This document shows positions 1,942 through 46,894 of a stretch of 64,000 nt of DNA, in pieces. Source of the stretch: Candidatus Sulfotelmatobacter sp. (GTDB lineage: Bacteria; Patescibacteriota; Saccharimonadia; Saccharimonadales; UBA4665); the NCBI GenBank assembly GCA_035508275.1, contig DATJNI010000007.1, positions 60,324 to 124,323 of the forward strand, given 5' to 3'. Each line of letters begins with the position of its first letter. The first letter of the stretch is position 1. The translations under genes and the position numbers were made by a program. The notes below the pieces were generated by a model. That model was not told the DNA's origin. It made no database searches and was given only the letters and a program-made list of their open reading frames with translations.

Positions 1942-2724
1942 CTATTTTTTAGATTTGTTCTTTAGGTTATATGCGCTAGATATAATTTTAGAGAATTTAG
2001 CGTAGTTAAGAGAAGCTGCTCCTGGTAAACAACCGTCAACTCCTTCTATTTCTAAGTAGCCTGAAGCTGTTTGGTCATCTACGCTACCGCCATAGATTAC
2101 TCGTATTTTCTCAGCTGTTGCCTTACCGTAAAGTTCGCTGACATTTAATCTAATAGTGTCGATAGCTGGTTTAACGAGAGATGGTTTAGCTAGTTCACCG
2201 TCAAAAGTAGATATAGCCCAGATTGGCTCGTAGGCAATTATGACGCTGCTTACATCTTCTGCCGTAAGATTACTTAGAGCAGTAACTACCTGGTCGTGAA
2301 TAACTCGCTTGGTTTCGCCGGCGTTTCTTTCTTCTTTGGTTTCACCAACGCAGAGAATTGGGTTAATACCATTTCTAATGGCTGCGCTGACTTTATCTCT
2401 AATGGTTTCTAGTGATTCGTGGAAATATATTCGCCGCTCTGAATGTCCAACTAGTGCGTAGTCAACGATGTCTCTAAGCATGGTGAAGCTGACCTCACCC
2501 GTGTAAGCTCCTTCATCTTTAAAGTAGGCATTTTGAGCGCACAGACCAAATTTACGCTTATCTATTGCTTCGGCTACTGTTGTTAGCGTTAGCAAACTGG
2601 GAGCTAAAACTACCTCTATCTCTCGGTGTATAGGAATGTTCTCATCAAGTCTCTTAACTAGGGCTAGAGCCTCTTTAACGTCGAGGTTCATCTTCCAGTT
2701 ACCGATGATGATGGTTTTACGCAT
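1942..2724 (-). CDS. tpiA: triosephosphate isomerase
   Basis: IIGNWKMNL, VGHSERR and AYEPIWAI motifs; 260 aa; directly downstream of pgk. Confidence 0.95.
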   Translation of the reverse strand: MRKTIIIGNWKMNLDVKEALALVKRLDENIPIHREIEVVLAPSLLTLTTVAEAIDKRKFGLCAQNAYFKDEGAYTGEVSFTMLRDIVDYALVGHSERRIYFHESLETIRDKVSAAIRNGINPILCVGETKEERNAGETKRVIHDQVVTALSNLTAEDVSSVIIAYEPIWAISTFDGELAKPSLVKPAIDTIRLNVSELYGKATAEKIRVIYGGSVDDQTASGYLEIEGVDGCLPGAASLNYAKFSKIISSAYNLKNKSKK

Positions 2725-2738
2725 ATGCTTATTATACC

Positions 2739-4025
2739 TTAGCGCTTGTCCTCTAAAGCTTCTACGCCGGGTAGCTTGTGTCCACTCATTAACTCTAGAG
2801 AGGCACCACCGCCTGTCGAGACATGATCGAAGCTATCTACTAGGCCTCTGCTCTCTATGTAGCCGACGGTATCGCCGCCGCCAACTAGAGAGTAGGGTCT
2901 AGTGCCTAAGTCCCCGACTATGGCCTCAATAACTGTTTGGGTGCCATGAGTGTAGGGTCCTATTAGGCCCCTTAGCCCTTTGGTCTCGGTTACTCCCATG
3001 GTGCCATTCCAGACGACAGTACTTGAAAGTTGGATAGCCCCAGCAATAAAGGCAGCGCTAAATGGGCCAATGTCTAGGATCATCTCATGGTCAAGAATAC
3101 GCATATCTTTTTCGCTTGGTTTATGTGGGTAGGAGACAATGTCGGCATAGTTATTGGCGGAAAAGTCGACAATTCGTGTACTGTGTCTACCCTCCATGTC
3201 TTGAGAAACAACCACATCAAAGGGGATAGCGAGAGTGAACTTACGTTTTTTAGATTCGATTTCGCTTCTTGCCATAATTTCTCTGGCTAGCTTTATTTCT
3301 TTTAAGTCTATTAGGCTTCTGCCGACCGGGATGCTCTTGGCAGCTAGAAAGGTATTGGCTAGGGCACCGCCGACTGCCATGAAGTCGGAATGCCGCATAA
3401 ACGTCTCAATAAGTTCAATCTTATCTGATATCTTAGCTCCACCAATTATGGCGGCAAGGGGACGTTTGGGATCATGCATAACGCTAGTTATGTTGTCGAC
3501 TTCTTTAGCAAGCAGTAGACCGGCAACACTTGGTAGTAACTTAGTGATGGCATAAGTACTAGCATGCTTTCTATGGACAACAGCGAAGCCGTCTTCTACA
3601 AATACTTGGCAGTTTTCGCTGAGCTGCCGAGCAAAGTCTTCGTTGTCAGACTCTTCTTCCGGGTGGAAGCGAAGGTTTTCTAGTAGCAGTATTTCATGTC
3701 TTGGCAGATTGGCTTTAGCTTGAGTGGCCTTTTCGCCTATGCAATCGTCAAGGAAATGCACTCTTCTACCCGTTAGTTTCGCTAGTTTAGCGGCTATCGG
3801 TTTTAGGCTCATCTCCTTATTTACCTGGCCCTTAGGGCGGCCAAGGTGAGAGATAATGACTAAGTTCTTAGCATGGGATAGGATGTAGTCTACTGTTAAT
3901 AGGGATTGTCTTATCCGGTAGTCGTCAGTTATTTCACCGTTTTTAATTGGAACGTTATAGTCGGCTCTTAGAAGAACCGTTTTGTTTTCTAGATTAATGT
4001 CTTTAACTGTTTTTTTACTGAACAT
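2739..4025 (-). CDS. pgk: phosphoglycerate kinase
   Basis: LLRADYNVP and SHLGRPKG N-terminal motifs and GGGDT near the C-terminus; 428 aa. Confidence 0.95.
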   Translation of the reverse strand: MFSKKTVKDINLENKTVLLRADYNVPIKNGEITDDYRIRQSLLTVDYILSHAKNLVIISHLGRPKGQVNKEMSLKPIAAKLAKLTGRRVHFLDDCIGEKATQAKANLPRHEILLLENLRFHPEEESDNEDFARQLSENCQVFVEDGFAVVHRKHASTYAITKLLPSVAGLLLAKEVDNITSVMHDPKRPLAAIIGGAKISDKIELIETFMRHSDFMAVGGALANTFLAAKSIPVGRSLIDLKEIKLAREIMARSEIESKKRKFTLAIPFDVVVSQDMEGRHSTRIVDFSANNYADIVSYPHKPSEKDMRILDHEMILDIGPFSAAFIAGAIQLSSTVVWNGTMGVTETKGLRGLIGPYTHGTQTVIEAIVGDLGTRPYSLVGGGDTVGYIESRGLVDSFDHVSTGGGASLELMSGHKLPGVEALEDKR

Positions 4026-4104
4026 CCTCTAGCCCACCCTGTCAAAAAGTCTAAAGCAGTTAGTTTTACTATTAATATTGTAGCGGATAGTTAGGCAAAT
4101 CGTG

Positions 4105-6951
4105 TCAGTTGACTGTGAATGATACCGCCGGCGTGGTTACGCTTTGACCTGAACTATCTTTAACTATAGCGCTAACGCTGTGAGTACCCTTCGCTCCGGA
4201 TGTCTTAAATTGCACTTCAAACGGCGAGGAAGTTACGGCTGAGCCATAGTCTGCGCCGTCTACTACATATTGGACTGAGGTTATACTGGCGCCGGTTGAA
4301 GGAGTGGCGTTAACTTGCAGCTTGGTGTCAGCGGTTAGAATTTCACCGATAGTGGGGTTTAGTATTGTGGCACTTAAGGGACTCGTAGCGTTTGATTTAT
4401 TACCACCAGAGTTACTTACTTTAATAGTAACTGGTGGTGAGGTAGCCATAGCACCAGTACCGTCCTGGACGACTGCTGTAATAGTGTACGACCCGTTTGC
4501 TACAGAGTTAGTATTCCAGGCATAGGTGTAAGGTGCCGAAGAGATTTGCTTGCCTAGTTTAGCGCCGTTTAGGTAGAATTGAACGTCAGCGACACTTGTT
4601 CTAGGGTCAGTTGTGGCGCTAGCTTGAATGTTTACAGTCCCTGAAACGGTTACATTATTAGCTGGGCTGTTTATCGTAGCGGTAGGCGGTGCCAGTGGCT
4701 GTGTGTTGTTATTACCGGTCTCGCTAATGTAGAGGAGTCTTGGAGAGTCGGTAACGGGAACTTCTATTACAATGTTGGTTGAGCTTCTGGAAATAACGTT
4801 GACGCTTGGTGTGGCGCCAGTTAGAGGATCGTAGAAAGTCATAGAGTTAATATTGTTACCATTAACTCCACCGATGGTTAAGCGGTAGGTTTCAGCCGGC
4901 AAGTCAAATTTGGTTTCGCCGGGAGCGCTAGAGTTGTATATCTTCTCTAGATCAGAGGTTTGAACATATATTGGTACTAAGAAACTGGAATTAGTTAACT
5001 GGTAAGGATAGAAGGAAAAGACGTTTCGGTTGTATAGGTCGGGGTACTGGGCAGTGCCATTGCCGCTGAACTGGATATTACCGGAGTAGTCGTCAATTTC
5101 GTTGAGGGCCAGGGATTGCGGTTTGGTAATGGTTTGGGCAGCCATGAAAGGCTTTAGGAAGTTATGGATGGTCTGGGTAATGAAGCCGCCCTGAGAGTCA
5201 CCTGGGTAAACATTGGGGTTAGAGTCAACTGCACTAATGAAACTGCTATCTACTAGATTAAGGCTGTATGGCCCCTGCTTTGAATCCTTGGCTGCGTAAA
5301 AGTCTATTTGCTTGGCACCCTTATTTACAAAGTCGGATAGGTATCGTATCTGAGCCTTGGCTTGTATATATTCACGGTCATTATTAGTGTAGTTATATTT
5401 GCCGTTATTCGGGTCGCCGCCGTTTCTAGGTGGAGTTAAACCGTAGTTATATTCGGTTATCCAAACTTGGGCGGTGTGGCCTTGAGGGTTGGCTGCATTC
5501 GAGCCGTGCAATGATCCACCAAGAGTCGTGGATATTGGAGACATGTCTCTAAGTAGTGACTGGTCGGTGAAGGCAGACAGAGACTGTTCTGGATAGTGAG
5601 CAACAAAGCTTGGCGTAAAGGTGTCTACGTTAACAGTCTTACCTCCAACAGTCTTGGTGGTATAGTCTCGCTGCATTAGGGCGTTCAGAGGATAAGACTG
5701 ATCATATTTTAAGTCAGCCGGATAAACCTTCTCGTTCTGGTATGGGTGCTTGCTTAGAGCTGTAATAGTGCTGGGAAGGGTTGAGCCACTGGGAAATGGT
5801 GACTGCGAAGCAAAACCATTGGTAATCTGGACACCGGTGAAACCATTAGCCGGGTTAGCTATAAAGTTACCTGTGTCAGCTAATATCTGAGCAGTGGTAC
5901 TACCGGTTAGGGTAGGGTTGGGTGGTGAAGAGTAGTAATTAGCGGCAGCTAAAAAGTTTGAGCCAAAGCTTAGCTCATTCCAAACTTCCAGGTCAAAGTT
6001 GTTATTACCAAGTGCGGCCTTAGCAGTACTAGCGACTCCGTTAACATAAGCCAGCCAGCCCTTGCTGTCAGTTGTGTAAACCGGGTTGGGCGTAACACCG
6101 TCAGCTAGAAAGGGTTTCTGGAAGGGGGCATAAGTAAGAATGGTCATTTTGCCCGAGAGATCGGCTGTGCTGTCTATTGGCTTGGACAGAGTAACTGTGT
6201 TGCCACTGACGGCAGTAAACAGGATTCCGGCCATGACTCCGTTATCTTCTATGCCAGTTTTTCCTGGCACTATCTGTTTGGCGGTCGAACTCGATACTGT
6301 GACCGTCGTGTCACCGACTTTCGGCGTAACTGTATACGAACCAGTGAAGCTAGAATTTGGTACTGGGTTAGTGTCTCCGGCGTAGAGAATAATTAAGGGT
6401 CGGATGCCGTTGGCTTTTAGGGCGTCAATTTTAGTTGTGAGATCGCCTGCAGCAGTTGGGTTAACCTGGGTTGGATTAGCATAACTCATAAAGCCGCCCC
6501 AGTTGGTTCCAAGTCGAGCGTGGGTAAAGCCAGTGTCTTTTAGTAGGTGGGCGGTGTCACTGGCTTCATTGGCGTTAACGTTGAAGTTAATACCAACAGC
6601 GTTTAGCATGTCCGTGGCAGGGACAGTGTCTAGGTAAGCGTTTTGGGGCTGATCGTAGAAGGATCTGTCGCTAGCAGTTAGATTAGTTAGGTATGCCGGG
6701 TCAGTATAGTCTGTGACAGTACCGGCAAACGGTGTCGCAGCATGTCCACCTAGAATTAAGTAGGCACCAATTACGGCAAATACCGCTACGAAAACTGTGG
6801 CGGTAATTTTTGAAAAGATAAAGTTGGGCATTTTATCGTTTAGGCTGCCCTTGCCTTCTCCGACTGTCGCTGAACTGGGGGGAACACTACTTACTGGATT
6901 TGATTCTTTGGGGGTAGTATCAGGGTTATCCTGAGAGTCATTAATGGCCAT
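4105..6951 (-). CDS. membrane-anchored extracellular protein: clan GH-A-like glycoside hydrolase core plus two C-terminal Ig-like (Big-type) domains
   Basis: N-terminal TM helix (FSKITATVFVAVFAVIGAYLILGG). Candidate acid/base and nucleophile motifs DLEVWNELSFG and QVWITEYNYG, as in (beta/alpha)8 clan A hydrolases. Two C-terminal repeats of the type VSGTVNIQA...VQFYLNGAKLG...APYTYAWNT...NGSYTITAVVQD. Confidence 0.6.
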   Translation of the reverse strand: MAINDSQDNPDTTPKESNPVSSVPPSSATVGEGKGSLNDKMPNFIFSKITATVFVAVFAVIGAYLILGGHAATPFAGTVTDYTDPAYLTNLTASDRSFYDQPQNAYLDTVPATDMLNAVGINFNVNANEASDTAHLLKDTGFTHARLGTNWGGFMSYANPTQVNPTAAGDLTTKIDALKANGIRPLIILYAGDTNPVPNSSFTGSYTVTPKVGDTTVTVSSSTAKQIVPGKTGIEDNGVMAGILFTAVSGNTVTLSKPIDSTADLSGKMTILTYAPFQKPFLADGVTPNPVYTTDSKGWLAYVNGVASTAKAALGNNNFDLEVWNELSFGSNFLAAANYYSSPPNPTLTGSTTAQILADTGNFIANPANGFTGVQITNGFASQSPFPSGSTLPSTITALSKHPYQNEKVYPADLKYDQSYPLNALMQRDYTTKTVGGKTVNVDTFTPSFVAHYPEQSLSAFTDQSLLRDMSPISTTLGGSLHGSNAANPQGHTAQVWITEYNYGLTPPRNGGDPNNGKYNYTNNDREYIQAKAQIRYLSDFVNKGAKQIDFYAAKDSKQGPYSLNLVDSSFISAVDSNPNVYPGDSQGGFITQTIHNFLKPFMAAQTITKPQSLALNEIDDYSGNIQFSGNGTAQYPDLYNRNVFSFYPYQLTNSSFLVPIYVQTSDLEKIYNSSAPGETKFDLPAETYRLTIGGVNGNNINSMTFYDPLTGATPSVNVISRSSTNIVIEVPVTDSPRLLYISETGNNNTQPLAPPTATINSPANNVTVSGTVNIQASATTDPRTSVADVQFYLNGAKLGKQISSAPYTYAWNTNSVANGSYTITAVVQDGTGAMATSPPVTIKVSNSGGNKSNATSPLSATILNPTIGEILTADTKLQVNATPSTGASITSVQYVVDGADYGSAVTSSPFEVQFKTSGAKGTHSVSAIVKDSSGQSVTTPAVSFTVN

Positions 6952-7049
6952 TTAGTTCTCTTTTATAGCAAAATTAATATATGTCATTTTTGTTTTACAA
7001 TACTCACTTATTAGGATGCTATAGATGGGCTTCGAAGTCAAGCTTATGC

Positions 7050-7619
7050 TTATTTGGTAAGTTCTTCGAGCAGTTCAGGGAAAGTATCGTCGGGCAAGTA
7101 TTTGTGTGTAAAATGCCCCTTGCCTTTAAACTCCCGGTAATTTACATCTTTTAGAGTCTCTCTTAGTTTCTTAACAGATGTTTGGATTTCCGGTGCGTCT
7201 TCTGCCGAGTTAAATATTACTAGCTCTTTTGTTCTTGAAGCAACGGTGGGGTCTAATTCAAATTTAAAAAACTGGTTTGGGTCTTCTTGCTCGACATCTA
7301 TCCAAGGAGCAACCAGAACCACTTTGCCTGTTCTTATTTCGGGGTGTTCGCTTAAGTATCTAACCCAGAAGCCGCCGCCACAGCTATGTCCAACGATTAA
7401 AGTTTCTGGGGTGATATCGTATCTTTCTACTTCCTTCACCCATCTATCCCACAGTGGTTCGTAAGCTAACGGAACTTCCGGAGTTGCGGCTGCAATGTCT
7501 CTATTGAGTAGCTGTTTCTGAAGCCATGGCAGCCAATGCGAATTGCTCATCGAGGGATACTTTTCTGAGTAGTATTCAGCTTTGCTTGGGCGGCCATGCA
7601 GAATAATGGCGTTTTTCAT
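7050..7619 (-). CDS. alpha/beta serine hydrolase, YdeN/RBBP9-like
   Basis: 189 aa. ILHG near the N-terminus, nucleophile elbow GHSCGG, and WLPWL motif typical of this small hydrolase family. Confidence 0.7.
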   Translation of the reverse strand: MKNAIILHGRPSKAEYYSEKYPSMSNSHWLPWLQKQLLNRDIAAATPEVPLAYEPLWDRWVKEVERYDITPETLIVGHSCGGGFWVRYLSEHPEIRTGKVVLVAPWIDVEQEDPNQFFKFELDPTVASRTKELVIFNSAEDAPEIQTSVKKLRETLKDVNYREFKGKGHFTHKYLPDDTFPELLEELTK

Positions 7620-40319: not shown

Positions 40320-40874
40320 ATGGCGAGTAACAGGCCTTTTCAATTACTTGGAGAGCATTTAAAGAACGTCCGTGAGGACGCTAAAAGAAGTCTAGAGGAA
40401 GTCTCTGGGGCTATTGAGATTGATGAGAGCAGGCTAAAGCAGATTGAAGCCGGCATGGAAAGACCCAGTGAGGACATAATGTTGCTACTTATTAATTACT
40501 TTAATATTGGCGACAGCGATGCTTACCATTTGTGGCGACTTGGTAAGTATAAAAGTGATATATCTGAGTTTTTGGATGGGGCACAGGATATGGACGCTTT
40601 CAAAGACAGTTCCACCCACCCCATGATCATGCTGCTATCTATGGACGTTAGGACAATGTACTCTGACGGCATCGAAATATCTTGGAATGAGGCTGGTTTT
40701 ACCCTTAACTTTACTCAGTCCATGAAAAACGGTGACAAGAAACAGTCTGCTGTTGTAGCCAGAGTCGGCATGAGTGAAGTTCAGGCTCAGAACGTGCTAA
40801 AGACTTTAGAGAAAGCCCTACTTAGAGCCAAGTATGCAAATAAGAAGCTATTGCCACCTAGGACGGATAGCTAA
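40320..40874 (+). CDS. XRE-family HTH protein with uncharacterised C-terminal domain
   Basis: LLGEHLKNVREDAKRSLEEVSGAIEIDESRLKQIEAGMERPSEDIMLLLINYF is HTH_3-like; 184 aa. Confidence 0.6.
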   Translation: MASNRPFQLLGEHLKNVREDAKRSLEEVSGAIEIDESRLKQIEAGMERPSEDIMLLLINYFNIGDSDAYHLWRLGKYKSDISEFLDGAQDMDAFKDSSTHPMIMLLSMDVRTMYSDGIEISWNEAGFTLNFTQSMKNGDKKQSAVVARVGMSEVQAQNVLKTLEKALLRAKYANKKLLPPRTDS

Positions 40875-41115: not shown

Positions 41116-41192
41116 GCGCCCGTAGCTCAGCGGATTAGAGCGTCTGTCTTCGGAACAGAAAGTCGGGGGTTCGAATCCCTCCGGGCGTACCA
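41116..41192 (+). tRNA. tRNA-Arg (anticodon UCG)
   Basis: GCGCCCGTAGCTCAGCGGATTAGAGCGTCTGTCTTCGGAACAGAAAGTCGGGGGTTCGAATCCCTCCGGGCGTACCA. Anticodon loop CTTCGGA. Confidence 0.9.
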
Positions 41193-41201
41193 ATACGGTT
41201 A

Positions 41202-41843
41202 TCATTCATTTTGTTCTAAAGCAATTTTCCCCAATTGCGAGAATACTAATTCGTGTACAGCATTAACCGATGGAGTACAATCAATAACCTCCACATCAAA
41301 TTTTTCAGCAAGCCAGTGGTAGCCTCTCGCTACTCTTTCAAAGAAAGATCTACCTTCTTTTTCAAACCAGTCACTTTCTGGACGAGCAAGACGTAATCTT
41401 TCCTCCTTTACCTCTATTGGCGCATCAAGGATAACTACTCCGTCGGGCATAAAGAAGTCCCCCATAGCTCTTTTTGAACGCTCAATTATCATGTCAATAT
41501 CCAAGCCTCTTCCAAAACCTTGATAAGCTACAGCTGAAAACCAGTTCCTATCGCTCAGAATAACCGAACCTTTTTTAACATTTGGCTGAATAACCTGTGC
41601 GGCTAGTTCTCTTCGTACCACTGTGAATAAGTCAAATTCGGTTTCTGGAGTTTTACTAATTGAAGGGTCAATTATAAGACCTCTTATAGCTGTACCTATA
41701 TCAGTACTCCCAGTATCTATAACGCCTATAACATCATCCCGGTGCGTTGAAAGTCTATCTAATAGTAAAGATTTCTGTGTCGTTTTGCCGACACCGTCTG
41801 AGCCTTCTATTACCAAATACTTTCCTAAGTGTGACTCACTCAT
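41202..41843 (-). CDS. tmk: thymidylate kinase
   Basis: P-loop LVIEGSDGVGKTTQ and the DR...S..AYQG block (LSDRNWFSAVAYQGFGRG). Confidence 0.9.
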   Translation of the reverse strand: MSESHLGKYLVIEGSDGVGKTTQKSLLLDRLSTHRDDVIGVIDTGSTDIGTAIRGLIIDPSISKTPETEFDLFTVVRRELAAQVIQPNVKKGSVILSDRNWFSAVAYQGFGRGLDIDMIIERSKRAMGDFFMPDGVVILDAPIEVKEERLRLARPESDWFEKEGRSFFERVARGYHWLAEKFDVEVIDCTPSVNAVHELVFSQLGKIALEQNE

Positions 41844-41928
41844 AACACTATGAAAGCATCATTTGAGCATTAGTCAAGTATATAATTGGGAGACCATCCC
41901 CTAACAGCAAGTAAGTTATAATTTAGTC

Positions 41929-42714
41929 ATGTCTTTAGCGATTACAATAATTTCACCTGAGGGTATAGTGCTTGCAGCGGATAGTAGGCTTACCGTAACA
42001 ATGAAAAATGAACTTGCAGACGGTAGCAAGACTGTAATCCCAAACTACTATGATAATGCGGTAAAAGTTCTCAACCTTACTAAGCCACATAATTATGTTG
42101 CTGCCACTACCTATGGTGCAGGCACAATAGGCCAGCGCACCGCACACAGTTATCTAAAAGAATTTCAGGCATCTTTAGGGAATAGACGTTTAGCTACAAA
42201 AACATTTGCTCAGAAATTGCTAGATTTTTATAAGAAGCAATGGGGTGAGGTAGAACATAGCGAAGATGAAGATAAGTTATATTTTCAAGTTGCAGGCATT
42301 GATGCAACGGAACTTTACGGAGAGGCTTACTTAGTCACGATACCCGATAGTACTTCGCCGCATACTTTAATAGAGAAGGGGTCTTTTTCACTTGCATGGG
42401 GCGGACAAACGGATACGGTTTATAGACTTGCGAAGGGATATGATGCGCTCATAGCCCAAGAGTTGAATGACTCTAACTTATCAGAGGAAGATAAGCAAAT
42501 GGTGCTACAAATATTGAATTCAAAGGAACTAAATTTACCAATACATCTTTATAGCTTGCAAGATTGCATTGACTTAGCAAGATTTTTAATAGACTCTACG
42601 GTTAAAGCTCAGTCATTATCAGTAGGTATTCGTGGCGTAGGTGGCTCAATAGATGTTGGATGCATTACGAGACACAAAGATTTTTGGTTTATTGCAAGAA
42701 AGGAGCTAAAATAA
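41929..42714 (+). CDS. proteasome beta-subunit-like Ntn hydrolase with Ser at the Thr1 position and no propeptide
   Basis: MSLAITIISPEGIVLAADSRLTV aligns with the T1-TIVGI-x-DGVVLAADxR consensus. Ser2 lies 16 residues before the AAD Asp (Asp17 equivalent), and a Lys lies 16 residues after it. Later blocks VAGID..G.AYLV, AWGGQTD and GGSIDVGCIT fit the beta-subunit fold. Confidence 0.65.
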   Translation: MSLAITIISPEGIVLAADSRLTVTMKNELADGSKTVIPNYYDNAVKVLNLTKPHNYVAATTYGAGTIGQRTAHSYLKEFQASLGNRRLATKTFAQKLLDFYKKQWGEVEHSEDEDKLYFQVAGIDATELYGEAYLVTIPDSTSPHTLIEKGSFSLAWGGQTDTVYRLAKGYDALIAQELNDSNLSEEDKQMVLQILNSKELNLPIHLYSLQDCIDLARFLIDSTVKAQSLSVGIRGVGGSIDVGCITRHKDFWFIARKELK

Positions 42715-42716
42715 TT

Positions 42717-42881
42717 ATGATAATGAAAACATTTGTATCTTACAGTACGGGAAAAATAAAAACAATATCATCTGATGGAGATACTATAAGTGGAGTTTAT
42801 ACTTCCGATATAGGCAAAAAAAAATTTAAAAAATTGATTAAGAAAGCTTCACAGCCCGTTCCAAAAGAACAGGGCAAGTAG
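42717..42881 (+). CDS. small Lys-rich protein (54 aa) immediately downstream of the proteasome-like gene
   Basis: GGAG 11 nt upstream. Starts 2 nt after the preceding stop. MIMKTFVSYSTGKIKT...KKKFKKLIKKAS. Confidence 0.4.
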   Translation: MIMKTFVSYSTGKIKTISSDGDTISGVYTSDIGKKKFKKLIKKASQPVPKEQGK

Positions 42882-42953
42882 GTATACTTCTAAAGTTATA
42901 AGTTTTAATTTCTTAATCTATGTCGTAACAGAGATAGTGATGATAAAATATAT

Positions 42954-42976
42954 GTACAGGATTCAAGCCCCTGTAC
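42954..42976. repeat. hairpin GTACAGG-N9-CCTGTAC carrying the motif TTCAAGCC(C)CTGTACTA, copy 1
   Basis: Read directly. The motif recurs at 43130-43144 inside a second hairpin. Confidence 0.5.
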
Positions 42977-43003
42977 TATAAAAACTAAAATAAAAGGAGG
43001 CGT

Positions 43004-43108
43004 ATGAAACGTCTTGAATATGGTAGTGGTATTTATTTACTAATGCCCGATACTGTAGTTGCAACTGTCGCTACAGTCTACCAGTCAATAGAAAAACCCG
43101 CTGGCTAG
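43004..43108 (+). CDS. 34-codon micro-ORF with consensus Shine-Dalgarno
   Basis: AAAAGGAGG 5 nt upstream of the ATG. MKRLEYGSGIYLLMPDTVVATVATVYQSIEKPAG. A terminator hairpin overlaps the stop. Below the ORF-track size cutoff. Confidence 0.45.
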   Translation: MKRLEYGSGIYLLMPDTVVATVATVYQSIEKPAG

Positions 43109-43120
43109 AGCGGGATTTTC
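43097..43120 (+). terminator. hairpin CCCGCT-GGCTAG-AGCGGG followed by ATTTTC
   Basis: 6-bp GC-rich stem overlapping the micro-ORF stop codon, then a short T run. Confidence 0.45.
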
Positions 43121-43134
43121 AAGAGTGCGTTCAA

Positions 43135-43162
43135 GCCTGTACTACAACGCGATAGTACAGGC
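43135..43162. repeat. perfect 10-bp hairpin GCCTGTACTA-N8-TAGTACAGGC, copy 2 of the CCTGTACTA motif
   Basis: Read directly. Lies between the micro-ORF and the convergent 71-aa gene. No U-tract on either strand. Confidence 0.5.
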
Positions 43163-43176
43163 TGGGCACGTTGATG

Positions 43177-43392
43177 TCAAGCTTCGGGCAAATCGCTATA
43201 TTTTTGTCTTAACAAGTTCCAAAACTCATCGAATTTATTTTCAGCAAGCTGAATTTCTTTTTTCTCTTCGTCTGTCAGCTCTGTTTTTACTCCACGTATA
43301 ATTTCATCCAATATCGCCCTTGATACTCTATCAGCGTCAGTATATTGTCTGTACGCAACAGTAATTTTTTGGTTTAGTTCTTTCATATCCAT
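43177..43392 (-). CDS. hypothetical helical protein (71 aa)
   Basis: Charged helical sequence. Intact ORF. Confidence 0.4.
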   Translation of the reverse strand: MDMKELNQKITVAYRQYTDADRVSRAILDEIIRGVKTELTDEEKKEIQLAENKFDEFWNLLRQKYSDLPEA

Positions 43393-43447
43393 ATCTAAAA
43401 TTATACTCTAGCGGTGCTACAATTAAGACATAAATAAGGAGTGCTAT

Positions 43448-43585
43448 ATGGCTAGGTTTGAAATGTCAGGAGGGGCAAAGTTTTGGTATTACTTTATAAA
43501 TATATTTACTTTTGCTTCCCTTTACTTTATTAAGGTAGCAGTTATGAAGGCATTTGAAGATATGCAGAATAAAGCCAGACACTAA
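43448..43585 (+). CDS. 45-codon micro-ORF encoding a putative single-TM peptide
   Basis: AAGGAG 7 nt upstream. MARFEMSGGAKFWYYFINIFTFASLYFIKVAVMKAFEDMQNKARH. Below the ORF-track cutoff. Confidence 0.4.
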   Translation: MARFEMSGGAKFWYYFINIFTFASLYFIKVAVMKAFEDMQNKARH

Positions 43586-43729
43586 CCTAAACTATTTACT
43601 TGCTTTTAGGGTATAGTCACCTATAATTGCCCGGCTATAAGCCCTTAAAGATTAATAAGTACTTTTGCGCCTATAATGGTCATGGTTTATATGTTTAGTA
43701 TTGATAGAATATAAAATAGAATTTGACTT

Positions 43730-44155
43730 ATGGAAATACCAGACTTTTTCGTCATAGGGGGTGAGCCCGCTTCTCGCGAGACTATAGAAGGCATATATTC
43801 GGCCATGTCTGCTCCAAGTTATGCCGAGGGACATAGAGGAAGAGAACCTTACGGCGTAAGTGTCTTCTTTTCAGAAGAAGATGGTGACTTGGACGGCATT
43901 AATATTTGGGTGCAGCGGGCACACAACATGACGAGAAGAGGTGTTCACACCGGCTGTTTTGGTACAAGCGGTGAAGACATTGCCTTTATGGGTCATGTAA
44001 TGGATAGTGGTCCAGTTACGCTCACTCAAGCTGTCGCCGAGAGAGCTGCAGCTCGTCTGGAACAAAAAAGACAAGAGGCCGAAAGAGTCGGAATAGCTGC
44101 TGTAAGAATTTTCTTATCTTCTACAAACTCGGTTAGAGATCCCAATATCCATTAA
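43730..44155 (+). CDS. hypothetical protein (141 aa)
   Basis: Intact ORF. No motif recognised. Confidence 0.45.
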   Translation: MEIPDFFVIGGEPASRETIEGIYSAMSAPSYAEGHRGREPYGVSVFFSEEDGDLDGINIWVQRAHNMTRRGVHTGCFGTSGEDIAFMGHVMDSGPVTLTQAVAERAAARLEQKRQEAERVGIAAVRIFLSSTNSVRDPNIH

Positions 44156-44281
44156 GCTGTTAAATATTTAACTTTGCAAACAAAACTGTGATATAGATTA
44201 CTTGACTCGTTAAGCGATGGGTTTCACAATCTAAATTGAAAGGTAATTATAAAAACTTTAAACAAATATAAAGAGACAATT

Positions 44282-44650
44282 ATGCGCAAGAAAGAGACTG
44301 GCCTAATAAAAACAATCGAGTACAGAAGGGAGGCTGTTGCATGGGCACTAGGTTTTGCCGGTCTCATAAAGGGAGTTGTATCTGTAGGAGTAGAAGACTT
44401 AAGACGATTGAAGGAAGAGGTGTTCTATGATGGAGTTCCAAACCCTTATTCTGAAGAGCATGAACTCGCAAAAACTGCTATGGGAAGAGGTAGAGTTATT
44501 GTGCAGTTTCCTCTCGAGCGAACTAGAACCCCAGATGAGACACCTATCAGCCCTGTAGGAGCCGGTGCCACAGTTAGTCCGCTTCGTCCATTAAACAATA
44601 GAGGTCCGGACTTACCACCCAGTCCCGATAGACCACTTCAAGCTGCTTGA
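44282..44650 (+). CDS. hypothetical protein (122 aa) with Pro-rich C-terminus
   Basis: Intact ORF. No motif recognised. Confidence 0.45.
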   Translation: MRKKETGLIKTIEYRREAVAWALGFAGLIKGVVSVGVEDLRRLKEEVFYDGVPNPYSEEHELAKTAMGRGRVIVQFPLERTRTPDETPISPVGAGATVSPLRPLNNRGPDLPPSPDRPLQAA

Positions 44651-44681
44651 TTTTATTTTTCCATAATATATTATTCAGATA

Positions 44682-45326
44682 GTGAGCGACACAAAAACTA
44701 GAGGTGTTAATACGTTAGTTCGAAGCGAGGCTCGTAGAATTCCTACTGATGAGAATGGACTCGTAGTACCACCCTCATATCCTGAATTTGAATACGTAGA
44801 ATATATAAGGCCTGATCCTATTCCGGAGGGTGTGATGGAACATCATATGTACTGGCCTGAGCGTAATTATGCAGGGTCTTACTTAGCGCACCATTTCAGG
44901 AGACATTCATATAACACTGTTTGGCTGCAAAAAAAGGAAGAGCGCCGCTTACATAGAGTAGCGGAAGTTCCTGTACCTAGTGATGACGCTATGCATAGAT
45001 TTTTTCAAGAGGCTATCGTTCTAGATGGATTACGAAATACGTTTAATGCAATAGGTGATATTGATGATGCTTTAACTAGCGATATCGTACGTAAATCACA
45101 AGATACTAGAGACAGAAGGACAAGACGTTTATCCACGCTTGCAGATATTATTGAAGAAACGGCTAGACTAGAAGTTATACCAAGGGAGATAAGAAGAGCC
45201 CACATAGGGCCTGCTGTACGTCTACTTATTGGTGAGTGCGTATCTGGAGTTCCAAGAGAAATTGCCAATGAGTATGGGCTCGAGCCGTTCGTGCCTGAGA
45301 GAGATTTTTTGGCTACTGCTATATAA
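44682..45326 (+). CDS. hypothetical protein (214 aa) with His-rich motif
   Basis: GTG start. EHHMYWPERNY...HHFRRHSYN cluster of His residues. No family recognised. Confidence 0.5.
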   Translation: MSDTKTRGVNTLVRSEARRIPTDENGLVVPPSYPEFEYVEYIRPDPIPEGVMEHHMYWPERNYAGSYLAHHFRRHSYNTVWLQKKEERRLHRVAEVPVPSDDAMHRFFQEAIVLDGLRNTFNAIGDIDDALTSDIVRKSQDTRDRRTRRLSTLADIIEETARLEVIPREIRRAHIGPAVRLLIGECVSGVPREIANEYGLEPFVPERDFLATAI

Positions 45327-45334
45327 TCCTTATT

Positions 45335-45517
45335 ATGGAACCAAATAAATCTAACGAGTCTAATACTCCGAAAAAGTCTGGTGGTTATGGGAAACGACCT
45401 GTTTGGCAGTGGGTTTTACTATACGTAGTTGTGGCTATCGTGGTTTACGGGATTATTTATCTTATTTTCATACATAAGAGTGGTAGTTCAAGCGGCAGCT
45501 CTTCGTCTGGATACTAG
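45335..45517 (+). CDS. small single-TM protein with poly-Ser/Gly tail
   Basis: WQWVLLYVVVAIVVYGIIYLIFI helix; 60 aa. Confidence 0.45.
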   Translation: MEPNKSNESNTPKKSGGYGKRPVWQWVLLYVVVAIVVYGIIYLIFIHKSGSSSGSSSSGY

Positions 45518-45518
45518 G

Positions 45519-45947
45519 TTAGTATTTCCAGGTAAAGTAAGGTTTGCGGATAAATAGGAAAGCTCTTGGTTTTTTAGATTCTATTTTTATTAAGTGAACG
45601 TGGTAGTGCGGAACAGTTTTTATTTTATTATCCTTCTCGCGGGCATAAATGTTGTATCCTTGCTTTTCATACTTAGCTAGGACTTCTATCATTTCTATTT
45701 TTTCTTTATCGTTTAGTTCCGATAGACTCTCAACGTGTCGCATTGGAATAGCCATTAGATGATCTTTGACCCTGCTCATCTCCCAGAAGTCATAGCTGTA
45801 AATATTATCTAAGACTTTAATATACTTACCTTGGTACTTAGGCTTTGCCTTGTCATCACAGAATGGGCAGGGTTTGCTTTTTGAATAGAGGCTTTTCCTG
45901 GTTTTATCGGGGTTGTAGCGTTTCTTAGTCTTGCGTTTGCGGTACAT
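45519..45947 (-). CDS. HIT-family (histidine triad) nucleotide hydrolase/transferase
   Basis: CPFC near the N-terminus and histidine triad VPHYHVHLI. Basic N-terminal tail. Confidence 0.75.
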   Translation of the reverse strand: MYRKRKTKKRYNPDKTRKSLYSKSKPCPFCDDKAKPKYQGKYIKVLDNIYSYDFWEMSRVKDHLMAIPMRHVESLSELNDKEKIEMIEVLAKYEKQGYNIYAREKDNKIKTVPHYHVHLIKIESKKPRAFLFIRKPYFTWKY

Positions 45948-46707
45948 GGTATGGTTCGTCCCCTAGGATTCTAGCTACTAGCCCGCTACTATTCCAACGA
46001 ATGCCATTTTCGTCTTTCATATAAGTGGTGCCCGTATCTATAACTCTTACTTTTGCATCAGTCCTACTACTATCACAAATGGTGCGAGCTAAATCTATAG
46101 CCTTGCCGTGTTCTTCATAGATAACCCAGGTGCCGAGTGCATCACGCCGCACTAGCTCTTCGGCTAGTTTTCTGTGCGTGGCCACACTAGATATAGGCTC
46201 AGATGGATCGGCATCAATTGCGACGAGATCTACTACAGGACGGAAGCGGTTAGGCTCAGGGGTTGGAACCATAAAATTACATAGAGTCATGGCTCTAAGT
46301 CGCCAAGGGTATACTGGTCGATTCCCAGGTTTACTTGACTTTACATTCGCTACCCTCTGATCTGTATCTAATGTGACTACCAGGAAGACTTCGTCTGACT
46401 CCGGGGTGGGCGGAACGTCGCTTATGTCTACCCCTCTTTTTAGTTGATTGTCATACTCTCCAAGTACGCGGGCGTGCGTTAAGTACCATTGGTGATTAGG
46501 GTGCGGAACATCAAAAGAGCCGTCAACTATGACAACGTGTTTGCCGCCAACCACTTCTGTTTCAATTTCTTCTACAAGCTCAAGAAAGTCTTCTTCGTTT
46601 TCCGGGTACCTTAGTCTATCCCCCCAAATTCCGTCTGTCATACCATCAACAAGTTCTTGTTTAGGTATTGCTAGATCACTGGATAAGCCTTCGTAACCCA
46701 TCTTCAT
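45925..46707 (-). CDS. cytidylyltransferase-like nucleotidyltransferase with variant HxGH motif (HPNH)
   Basis: VVIVDGSFDVPHPNHQWYL at the GxFDxxHxGH position. LVVTLDTDQRV, VDLVAI and C-terminal IRWNSSGLVARI resembling the ISST motif. Confidence 0.6.
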   Translation of the reverse strand: MKMGYEGLSSDLAIPKQELVDGMTDGIWGDRLRYPENEEDFLELVEEIETEVVGGKHVVIVDGSFDVPHPNHQWYLTHARVLGEYDNQLKRGVDISDVPPTPESDEVFLVVTLDTDQRVANVKSSKPGNRPVYPWRLRAMTLCNFMVPTPEPNRFRPVVDLVAIDADPSEPISSVATHRKLAEELVRRDALGTWVIYEEHGKAIDLARTICDSSRTDAKVRVIDTGTTYMKDENGIRWNSSGLVARILGDEPYHVPQTQD

Positions 46708-46816
46708 ATATGTAAACCCTTAGATTAGTCTCTATTTAAATATATTTACTAGATAAATACAATTTACTCTTGTTGTAAAGTTAAGCGAATTAACGTATAA
46801 TCACCTCTGTTTTTAT

Positions 46817-46894
46817 GGCGGGCGTAGCTCAGTAGGTTAGAGCGTCTGATTGTGGTCCAGAAGGTCGTGGGTTCAAATCCCATCGCTCGCCCCA
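46817..46894 (+). tRNA. tRNA-His (anticodon GUG) with encoded G-1
   Basis: G-GCGGGCGTAGCTCAGTAGGTTAGAGCGTCTGATTGTGGTCCAGAAGGTCGTGGGTTCAAATCCCATCGCTCGCCCCA. Anticodon loop TTGTGGT. The extra 5-prime G sits opposite discriminator C73. Confidence 0.85.

Follow-up and report, generated by a model that had tools for sequence, protein, structure and literature searches.

The stretch analysed here, 64,000 nucleotides (nt) of contig DATJNI010000007.1 assigned to Candidatus Sulfotelmatobacter sp. (hereafter the window), carries a gene for a 261-residue protein that modelling and profile comparison indicate to be a proteasome-beta-fold N-terminal nucleophile (Ntn) hydrolase with an intact, conserved Ser/Thr-Asp-Lys triad. 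The gene is followed at once by a short lysine-rich open reading frame (ORF), and a small partner gene recurs behind the hydrolase across its family, where a type II toxin gene often comes third. We propose with moderate confidence, from comparative sequence evidence, that the hydrolase is a dedicated partner-processing protease that is translationally coupled to its small downstream partner.

A sequence-only reading of the window had described the gene as encoding a proteasome-beta-like Ntn hydrolase, and the ORF lies on the forward strand where that reading placed it (Table 1), with the claimed N-terminus (MSLAITIISPEGIVLAADSR). Searches with the protein sequence against Pfam, NCBIfam, PADLOC and, by phmmer, PDB sequences returned no significant match, and the Pfam Proteasome model (PF00227) left it unmatched even at E<=10. 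The sole direct annotation match was PHROG 5990, a family with function unknown (residues 3-123, E 3e-7). This is a phage family of 427 positions, and the match covers the N-terminal half of the hydrolase (41929-42300), which suggests that the phage proteins combine an N-terminal proteasome-like domain with a long C-terminal extension. A tblastn search of the hydrolase against phage and plasmid collections gave zero matches. An AlphaFold2 model was built on an alignment of 30 family sequences (A1) and reached a predicted local distance difference test score (pLDDT) of 88.4 and a predicted template modelling score of 0.84. Comparing this model with PDB by Foldseek gave 288 matches at E<=1e-3, headed by 20S beta subunits (E 9e-8 to 1e-5, TM up to 0.68, target-normalised); the 50 best of the 288 were all proteasome subunits or Anbu, with Anbu at rank 44. 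The best structural match in BFVD was a phage protein labelled 'proteasome beta type-2' (E 1e-11). A profile search of PDB found beta subunits only marginally (E ~0.5), below spurious nanobody matches, while direct hhalign comparison of A1 with the mature Thermoplasma beta subunit (sequence identical to 3c91_H) gave E 2.4e-5 and paired D18 with Glu17, K46 with Lys33 and G65 with Gly47. The proposed fold is thus upheld by both structure and profile comparison.

Invariant positions in A1 are S2, L3, E11, G12, A17, D18, R20, D42, K46, T61, G63, G68, R70, Q211, D212, V237, G238 and G239. The spacing of 16 residues between Ser2 and Asp18 is the canonical spacing from Thr1 to residue 17, as had been noticed from the sequence. 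When the position 16 residues ahead of the Asp was inspected in a wider sample of 284 sequences, it was Ser in 214 and Thr in 19 (MTL… starts), with five oddities. Exchange between Ser and Thr alone is as expected of a nucleophile, and the assignment of Ser2 to that role stands. The lysine of the triad had been assigned incorrectly: K34, 16 residues after D18, falls in a variable hairpin and is unconserved, whereas K46 is invariant and aligns on Lys33. Longer homologues (P0084, P0040 and others) were considered as propeptide-bearing forms or fusions and ruled out, being mis-called upstream starts with an internal MSL, indicating a family that has no propeptide. Methionine aminopeptidase takes off Met ahead of small residues; it would here strip Met1 and expose Ser2 as the nucleophile, aided by Asp18 and Lys46. 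In the best explanation, the hydrolase would be catalytically competent.

In the model, helices assigned by DSSP span residues 72-82, 90-106, 162-169, 174-180, 186-197 and 210-232. Compared with a canonical beta subunit, the S3/S4 hairpin is longer, two helices are inserted between H3 and H4, and H5 is absent.

To place the gene in its family context, we assembled 83 non-redundant loci, 80 of them from one genome per GTDB species, together with metagenomic contigs and the window. A downstream ORF of >=35 amino acids lies within a few tens of nt of the hydrolase stop codon in 81 of the 83. Hydrolase and partner are most often separated by −4 nt (17 loci) or +1 nt (13 loci), a signature of translational coupling. 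Many partners share an N-terminal motif (N-motif), which reads T-N-S-A-x-T-x-D-W-L-x4-G-x-x-I-x-A-Y in partner alignment A7 and T-x-x-x-x-T/S-x-D-W-L-x4-G-x-x-I-x-A-Y as a general consensus, with clade-specific variants such as PQTE…W…GW.I.PLN and FG…IP…E…A.Y…DW. A strict regular expression for this motif was found in 22 of 81 partners and in 64 of 5481 other ORFs of the same loci (odds ratio 32, Fisher p = 1.5e-22), an enrichment that is supportive rather than independent because the expression was derived from these loci. With hidden Markov models (HMMs) trained on half of the loci, 11 partners of the remaining loci were recovered at E<0.01, against 0 of 5340 background ORFs. Natural fusions also exist in which the motif sits on the hydrolase C-terminus, in P0180 (…SAGTQDWLAALRASHATIISA…) and P0207 (…SSATWQARMAGTDLTLAF…); P0180 has Thr, not Ser, at position 2. 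When the hydrolases were ordered by neighbour joining, the N-motif subtype tracked the hydrolase clade. A Pfam scan of 68 partners found no antitoxin or DNA-binding domain, bar one GntR match.

These results bear on the description of the hydrolase as a stand-alone, self-compartmentalising peptidase. In agreement with the sequence-only reading, a Pfam scan detected no alpha subunit, HslU/AAA ATPase or Anbu-type gene within ~5 kb of the window hydrolase, and the related loci examined likewise had no alpha subunit, HslU/AAA unfoldase or Anbu operon partners. A conventional housekeeping peptidase working by itself, in HslV- or BPH-like rings and beside an incidental small ORF, would share the proteasome-like fold and the conserved triad, and BPH too has no known unfoldase (PMC5777263). 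However, nearly all loci have a conserved, coupled partner, fused forms are known, and the N-motif varies together with the hydrolase; the patchy spread over many phyla is typical of mobile modules. We consider the housekeeping explanation hardly credible. 'Stand-alone' was a misleading term, since the small downstream ORF recurs as a conserved partner throughout the family, and a self-compartmentalising peptidase acting alone finds no support in an enzyme that is coupled to a partner, accompanied by a toxin gene in many relatives and patchily distributed across phyla.

Most loci contain a further gene on the same strand 3' of the partner, at −42 to +25 nt. Among 54 such third genes scanned with Pfam, PemK/MazF matched 16, Fic/Doc eight and ParE six, with further matches to ParE_like (1), ParE-like_toxin (1) and Gp49 (2). 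Recognised type II toxins from three unrelated superfamilies are therefore present in at least 31 of the 83 loci. The class of the partner's C-terminal tail matches the cluster of the third gene without exception: a PemK cluster goes with tails …WDxLSDEAxxxFE or …AIYDFLxFE, a second MazF/PemK cluster with …LASExLLAxDWxxPEEDxAWxxL, Doc with …LLExSLxxYxDIWxxLAxx, and ParE with …YSEYRxxRL. Such a correspondence is the pattern expected were the tail the toxin-binding, neutralising segment of an antitoxin. Each toxin type is scattered over several hydrolase clades. As the N-motif tracks the hydrolase and the toxins are scattered, hydrolase plus N-motif and tail plus toxin appear to recombine as separate modules. 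In a reverse test with a profile of Doc-class partners, all three newly found partners lay between a hydrolase starting MSLG… or VSLG… and a Fic/Doc gene, with overlapping frames.

Several third genes fall outside the recognised toxins. Those of L029 (5048-5695) and L059 (5076-5726), encoding 216-217 residues, and those of L062 (5163-5681) and L085 (5095-5676), encoding 173-194 residues, lie 3' of hydrolase-partner pairs and share an N-terminal …QGDII..VFFP… motif with no Pfam match even at E<=0.5; their position makes them candidates for new toxins. In L003, from a 3.8-Mb genome, the partner (158 residues, 6812-7285) has the usual N-motif (SVKDWEATGWKIQPYH) and an extra C-terminal domain, and a 90-residue gene (7288-7557) starts at the final base of its stop codon. 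Neither gene has a Pfam match, and the arrangement may represent a further toxin-antitoxin (TA) family attached to the module. The toxin-less partners of L058, L080, L086 and L033, from distant phyla, have basic tails with a loose F-x-x-D-L-x-K-x-x-R/K pattern. These tails recall the KKFKKLIKKASQP tail of the window partner and may form with it a shared tail class.

The tight coupling of a large enzyme gene to a following small one also resembles toxin-first TA pairs, in which case the two-gene form would encode a harmful protease toxin (the hydrolase) and its inhibitor or antitoxin (the small protein). Toxin-less forms occur in several phyla, and some relatives lie near mobile or TA genes. 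A VbhA-Fic toxin-antitoxin pair (2305-3032) stands directly 5' of a close hydrolase relative in L089, with Fic overlapping the hydrolase start; an IS1595 transposase follows the same hydrolase (3899-4849), and an IS1595 fragment lies downstream in L090 (4097-4318). These IS1595 and VbhA-Fic neighbours point to a mobile context. The relative P0117 (L005) is situated within an island of AbiEii, HicB, DUF2283 and PemK genes. By contrast, the 31 or more loci with a separate toxin that matches the partner tail indicate that the partner there is the antitoxin of that toxin, and we regard a toxic hydrolase in the two-gene form as very unlikely.

The window's own partner corresponds to the 54-residue Lys-rich ORF already noticed from the sequence, 2 nt beyond the hydrolase stop and preceded by a Shine-Dalgarno-like box. 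The nearest relatives of the hydrolase share 42-81% identity with it, the best GTDB match being a Saccharibacteria metagenome-assembled genome (MAG), and all of them are followed by a related small coding unit made of two parts, a hairpin part with an invariant G…VYT and a cationic part, KKLFKRLIKKASQPxPK. The two are fused in the window and in L001 (73 residues). In L089 and L090 they are split into a hairpin ORF of 28-31 residues and a 23-residue ORF, MSKKLFKRLIKKASQPxPK…, which overlap at ATGA, while L008 and L088 have the hairpin part alone; separate hairpin ORFs span 26-31 residues across L008, L089 and L090. Conservation of the parts in both fused and split form indicates that both are real coding sequence. 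The cationic tail of the window partner has a helical hydrophobic moment of 0.78, a value reached by 0.36% of shuffles.

Taking together the fold, the conservation of the triad, the operon layout and both patterns of co-variation, we infer the following course of events. The hydrolase would bind the N-terminal element of its partner physically and then process or degrade the partner. In the main clades the partner would be a minimal antitoxin, in which the N-motif goes with the hydrolase and the tail presumably neutralises the toxin (PemK/MazF, Doc or ParE). The hydrolase would thereby serve as a 'private proteasome' that makes the antitoxin labile or cleaves it upon a trigger, with no need of host Lon or Clp, and toxin release after shut-off or a trigger would follow from hydrolase-driven antitoxin turnover. 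According to literature cited in PMC8665760, 20S particles need no ATP to degrade disordered proteins; the partners, being short and having no recognisable folded domain, would suit an ATP-independent proteasome-like peptidase. Put more broadly, and tentatively, these loci may constitute an unrecognised tripartite TA or defence class, in which a Ser1 proteasome homologue acts as the dedicated, ATP-independent protease of minimal antitoxins that bear a degron-like N-terminal motif and interchangeable tails, each specific to a toxin (MazF, Doc, ParE or others), its substrate in the window lineage being a hairpin-plus-peptide precursor instead. The window would then represent a derived, toxin-less two-gene form whose hydrolase processes the hairpin-plus-cationic-peptide partner; that the enzyme controls or releases a cationic peptide is speculation.

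Binding without proteolysis would account for part of the same evidence. If the hydrolase behaved like the chaperone of toxin-antitoxin-chaperone (TAC) systems, it would bind the N-terminal aromatic motif and stabilise the antitoxin, catalysis being secondary or absent, and its release, for example through a competing phage protein, would let the antitoxin decay and free the toxin. The tripartite architecture with promiscuous toxins is that of TAC, the N-motif co-varies with the hydrolase clade, and the motif Trp is preceded by Asp, much as in the aromatic motifs of the chaperone addiction (ChAD) element (bioRxiv 10.1101/2024.02.24.581848). Yet the invariant S2, D18 and K46 and the exchange restricted to Ser and Thr are hard to explain without catalysis, and the fold is that of an enzyme and no known chaperone fold. 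We therefore consider a chaperone role unlikely.

A single event at the partner is a further alternative, the hydrolase being a sequence-specific maturation protease or a Connectase-like transpeptidase that makes one cut at, or ligates through, the N-terminal region of the partner; in the window such a cut would detach the hairpin module and free the cationic peptide. A ligase or transpeptidase had also been suggested in the sequence-only reading. Connectase, itself a proteasome homologue, is monomeric, recognises a short motif and works through an acyl-enzyme intermediate (PMC7980362). Ring stacking may be hampered by the H3/H4 insertion (PMC8665760), the modules of the window clade occur fused and split, and a Thr a few residues ahead of the motif Trp is invariant in Doc-class partners and common in A7. 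On the other hand, the Connectase signature is absent and H1 and H2 are present here, no acceptor substrate is evident, and loss of the N-motif alone would not obviously release a toxin, leaving maturation or ligation a decidedly unlikely account.

Several observations weigh against a partner-processing protease and against extending the three-gene scheme to the window. The supporting residues Ser129, Asp166 and Ser169 of canonical beta subunits are unconserved in the hydrolase, as judged by sequence alignment only: alignment of the GGxIDV segment places V237 at position 169 and I234 at 166, and WGGQ stands in place of the GSG region, so that the activity of the hydrolase may differ. A triad conserved in this way would fit a ligase as well. 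Constant destruction of a co-expressed antitoxin would demand a regulatory step, and the AlphaFold2 model of fusion P0180 has pLDDT <50 over the partner part and is thus uninformative on docking. A third gene is missing from the window itself, where the nearest following ORF of >=70 amino acids lies 296 nt away on the opposite strand and has no Pfam match. Its partner was missed by the common N-motif HMM, hhalign of the window-clade partners against A7 gave a probability of 0.4%, and a database homology search with the 54-residue sequence matched only itself. What the window-clade partner shares with the common partners is its position and a loosely similar hairpin pattern. With no detectable homology between the partners, the link between the window and the three-gene loci rests on orthology of the hydrolase and on the conserved position of a coupled small ORF.

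The features of the hydrolase gene and its partner are collected in Table 1.

Table 1. Positions in the window of the hydrolase gene, its partner ORF and the elements within them
Feature	Position	Strand	Basis or remark
Hydrolase gene, 261 residues; predicted proteasome-beta-fold Ntn hydrolase, Ser1 type, propeptide-free	41929..42714	+	ORF, AlphaFold2 model, Foldseek, homologues
Ser2 codon, predicted N-terminal nucleophile (Thr1 equivalent)	41932..41934	+	Invariant in A1; 16 residues ahead of Asp18
Asp18 codon (Asp17 equivalent)	41980..41982	+	Invariant in A1; aligned to Glu17
Lys46 codon (Lys33 equivalent)	42064..42066	+	Invariant in A1; hhalign DNAVKVL vs KNGKKLF
G63-A64-G65 codons, candidate oxyanion-hole glycine (Gly47 equivalent)	42115..42123	+	G63 invariant; hhalign puts G65 on Gly47
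Two-helix insertion between H3 and H4, ~residues 170-205	42436..42543	+	DSSP on model; insertion site as in PMI-2 to PMI-6
AAGGAG Shine-Dalgarno-like box	42700..42705	+	Inside the hydrolase gene end; 11 nt ahead of the ATG at 42717
Partner ORF, 54 residues, Lys-rich, MIMKTFVSYSTGKIKTISSDGDTISGVYTSDIGKKKFKKLIKKASQPVPKEQGK	42717..42881	+	2 nt past the hydrolase stop; kept in L001, L088, L089, L090 and L008
Partner N-terminal 'hairpin' module (…KIKTISSDGDTISGVYTS…)	42717..42812	+	G21, V27, Y28 and T29 invariant in six clade sequences
Partner cationic amphipathic tail GKKKFKKLIKKASQPVPKEQGK	42813..42878	+	Net charge +8 over 22 residues

Within ~5 kb of the hydrolase the Pfam scan recognised glyA, murB, a helix-turn-helix (HTH) protein, tmk, a HIT protein and a P-type ATPase, together with ORFans. 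The operon is flanked by tRNA-Arg(TCG) at 41116-41192 and tRNA-His(GTG) at 46818-46894; this interval contains tmk just 5' of the operon and a HIT-family gene, and otherwise ORFans without a Pfam match (43.1-46.7 kb). Local GC content drops to 0.378 at 42-44 kb, and the stretch 41116-46894 may be a variable or acquired segment. A 184-residue protein encoded between murB and tRNA-Arg (40320-40874, +) has an N-terminal XRE-type HTH (HTH_31/HTH_3) and a weak DUF3467 match. A 34-residue ORF, MKRLEYGSGIYLLMPDTVVATVATVYQSIEKPAG, with a strong AAGGAGG box ahead of it, lies at 43004-43108 (+), 123 nt 3' of the partner ORF. Exact TATAAT hexamers are present 5' of the hydrolase gene at 41917-41922 and 41881-41886. 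The former ends 6 nt ahead of the hydrolase ATG and would yield a leaderless transcript; for neither hexamer was a matching −35 element detected, and both are absent from the promoter scan output. The promoter and terminator scan gave nothing operon-defining above shuffled expectation.

At the level of the family, 888 homologues of the hydrolase were found at E<=1e-3 in the 90%-identity database, and 3705 matching clusters, 316 of these at E<=1e-30, in the 50%-identity database, a signal far above chance. The spread is patchy and reaches more than 15 phyla, including Chloroflexota, Acidobacteriota, Bacteroidota, Spirochaetota, Actinomycetota, Saccharibacteria and Verrucomicrobiota, plus one archaeon (a Methanosarcinales MAG). 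Fuchs, Alva and Lupas described 22 new proteasome-like families in 2021 (Bioinformatics; PMC8665760), all with the triad Thr1/Ser1, Asp17 and Lys33 plus Gly47, and restricted propeptides to beta subunits and HslV. Within their PMI ('multiple insertions') group, clusters PMI-2 to PMI-6 have an insertion between H3 and H4 that may hinder ring stacking, and PMI-4 has abundant members in bacterial phyla, in Euryarchaeota and in phages (PMC8665760). The hydrolase family resembles the PMI clusters in its wide but patchy prokaryotic occurrence, its Thr1/Ser1-Asp17-Lys33 residues and its lack of a propeptide, with a candidate for Gly47. The hydrolase starts with MSL and, like PMI-2 to PMI-6, has an H3/H4 insertion (helices 174-180 and 186-197), and its PHROG and BFVD matches parallel the phage occurrence of PMI-4. 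The family is very probably one of these clusters, to judge by description, and looks to be of PMI type. Serine in place of Thr1 and the missing propeptide, to which the sequence-only reading had drawn attention, are both real features, but a claim of novelty is weakened by PMC8665760: a Ser1 proteasome homologue without a propeptide belongs to a class already known. What differs is the context. The authors reported no informative genomic context (PMC8665760), whereas a conserved partner and a toxin are found here, and within the literature collection searched nothing tied proteasome homologues to toxin-antitoxin or defence systems. The hydrolase itself is a new member of a known uncharacterised class, and the hydrolase-antitoxin-toxin architecture appears to be a form of tripartite TA system that had not been described.

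Many proteasome homologues are uncharacterised, and those who discovered them reported no genomic clue to function. A reproducible TA linkage, consisting of an enzyme, a minimal antitoxin and toxins of unrelated superfamilies, with co-variation of tail with toxin and of motif with enzyme, would give this hydrolase family its first testable function. If true, it bears on how antitoxins become labile and toxins get triggered, and would mean that some mobile TA modules carry their own protease and do not rely on host Lon or Clp. Such independence might count most where a lineage has a reduced set of proteases; the copy in the window is accompanied by no recognisable toxin. The proteasome family would also gain a naturally occurring Ser1 enzyme whose peptide substrate is defined, and Connectase shows the value of such enzymes as tools. 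For the window itself the outcome is modest, namely a family member with a conserved, unexplained cationic partner.

Compared with known systems, the hydrolase shares with the 20S beta subunit (T1; Thermoplasma acidophilum PsmB, PDB 1PMA/3C91) the Ntn alpha-beta-beta-alpha sandwich, the N-terminal nucleophile with an acidic residue 16 positions later, an equivalent of Lys33, and the C-terminal GGxIDVAxITR motif, and it has a candidate for the Gly47 equivalent. Unlike that subunit, it has Ser and not Thr as the nucleophile, and neither a propeptide nor an alpha subunit. Connectase, an archaeal sequence-specific protein ligase, likewise has a proteasome fold without a propeptide, and acts on one specific protein via a short recognition motif (PMC7980362). 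However, Connectase has no H1/H2 and carries a two-helix lid between S3 and S4, whereas H1/H2 (residues 72-82 and 90-106) are present in our model and S3/S4 form a beta hairpin. The nucleophile of Connectase is Thr1, no coupled small ORF encodes its substrate MtrA, and the enzyme has no toxin link. A dedicated protease for an antitoxin may have a precedent in another enzyme class: Makarova et al. reportedly described in 2009 an Xre antitoxin linked to a dedicated COG2856/ImmA-IrrE metalloprotease that probably cleaves the antitoxin or repressor. Those modules differ in that the protease is an unrelated Zn metalloprotease and the antitoxin has an HTH domain. The TAC systems, in which a SecB-like chaperone serves an antitoxin with a ChAD, offer the same three-gene layout with several toxin families (PMC5105189, PMC6377645). 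ChAD short linear motifs contain aromatic residues preceded by a polar residue or Asp and add beta-strands to the chaperone (bioRxiv 10.1101/2024.02.24.581848), and recognition of a short, aromatic-centred, transferable antitoxin element by an accessory protein is predicted here as well. In contrast to TAC, no DNA-binding domain is recognisable in the antitoxin, its conserved element lies at the N-terminus and is not a C-terminal ChAD, and the accessory gene comes first in the operon and encodes, in place of SecB, a predicted Ntn hydrolase with an intact triad.

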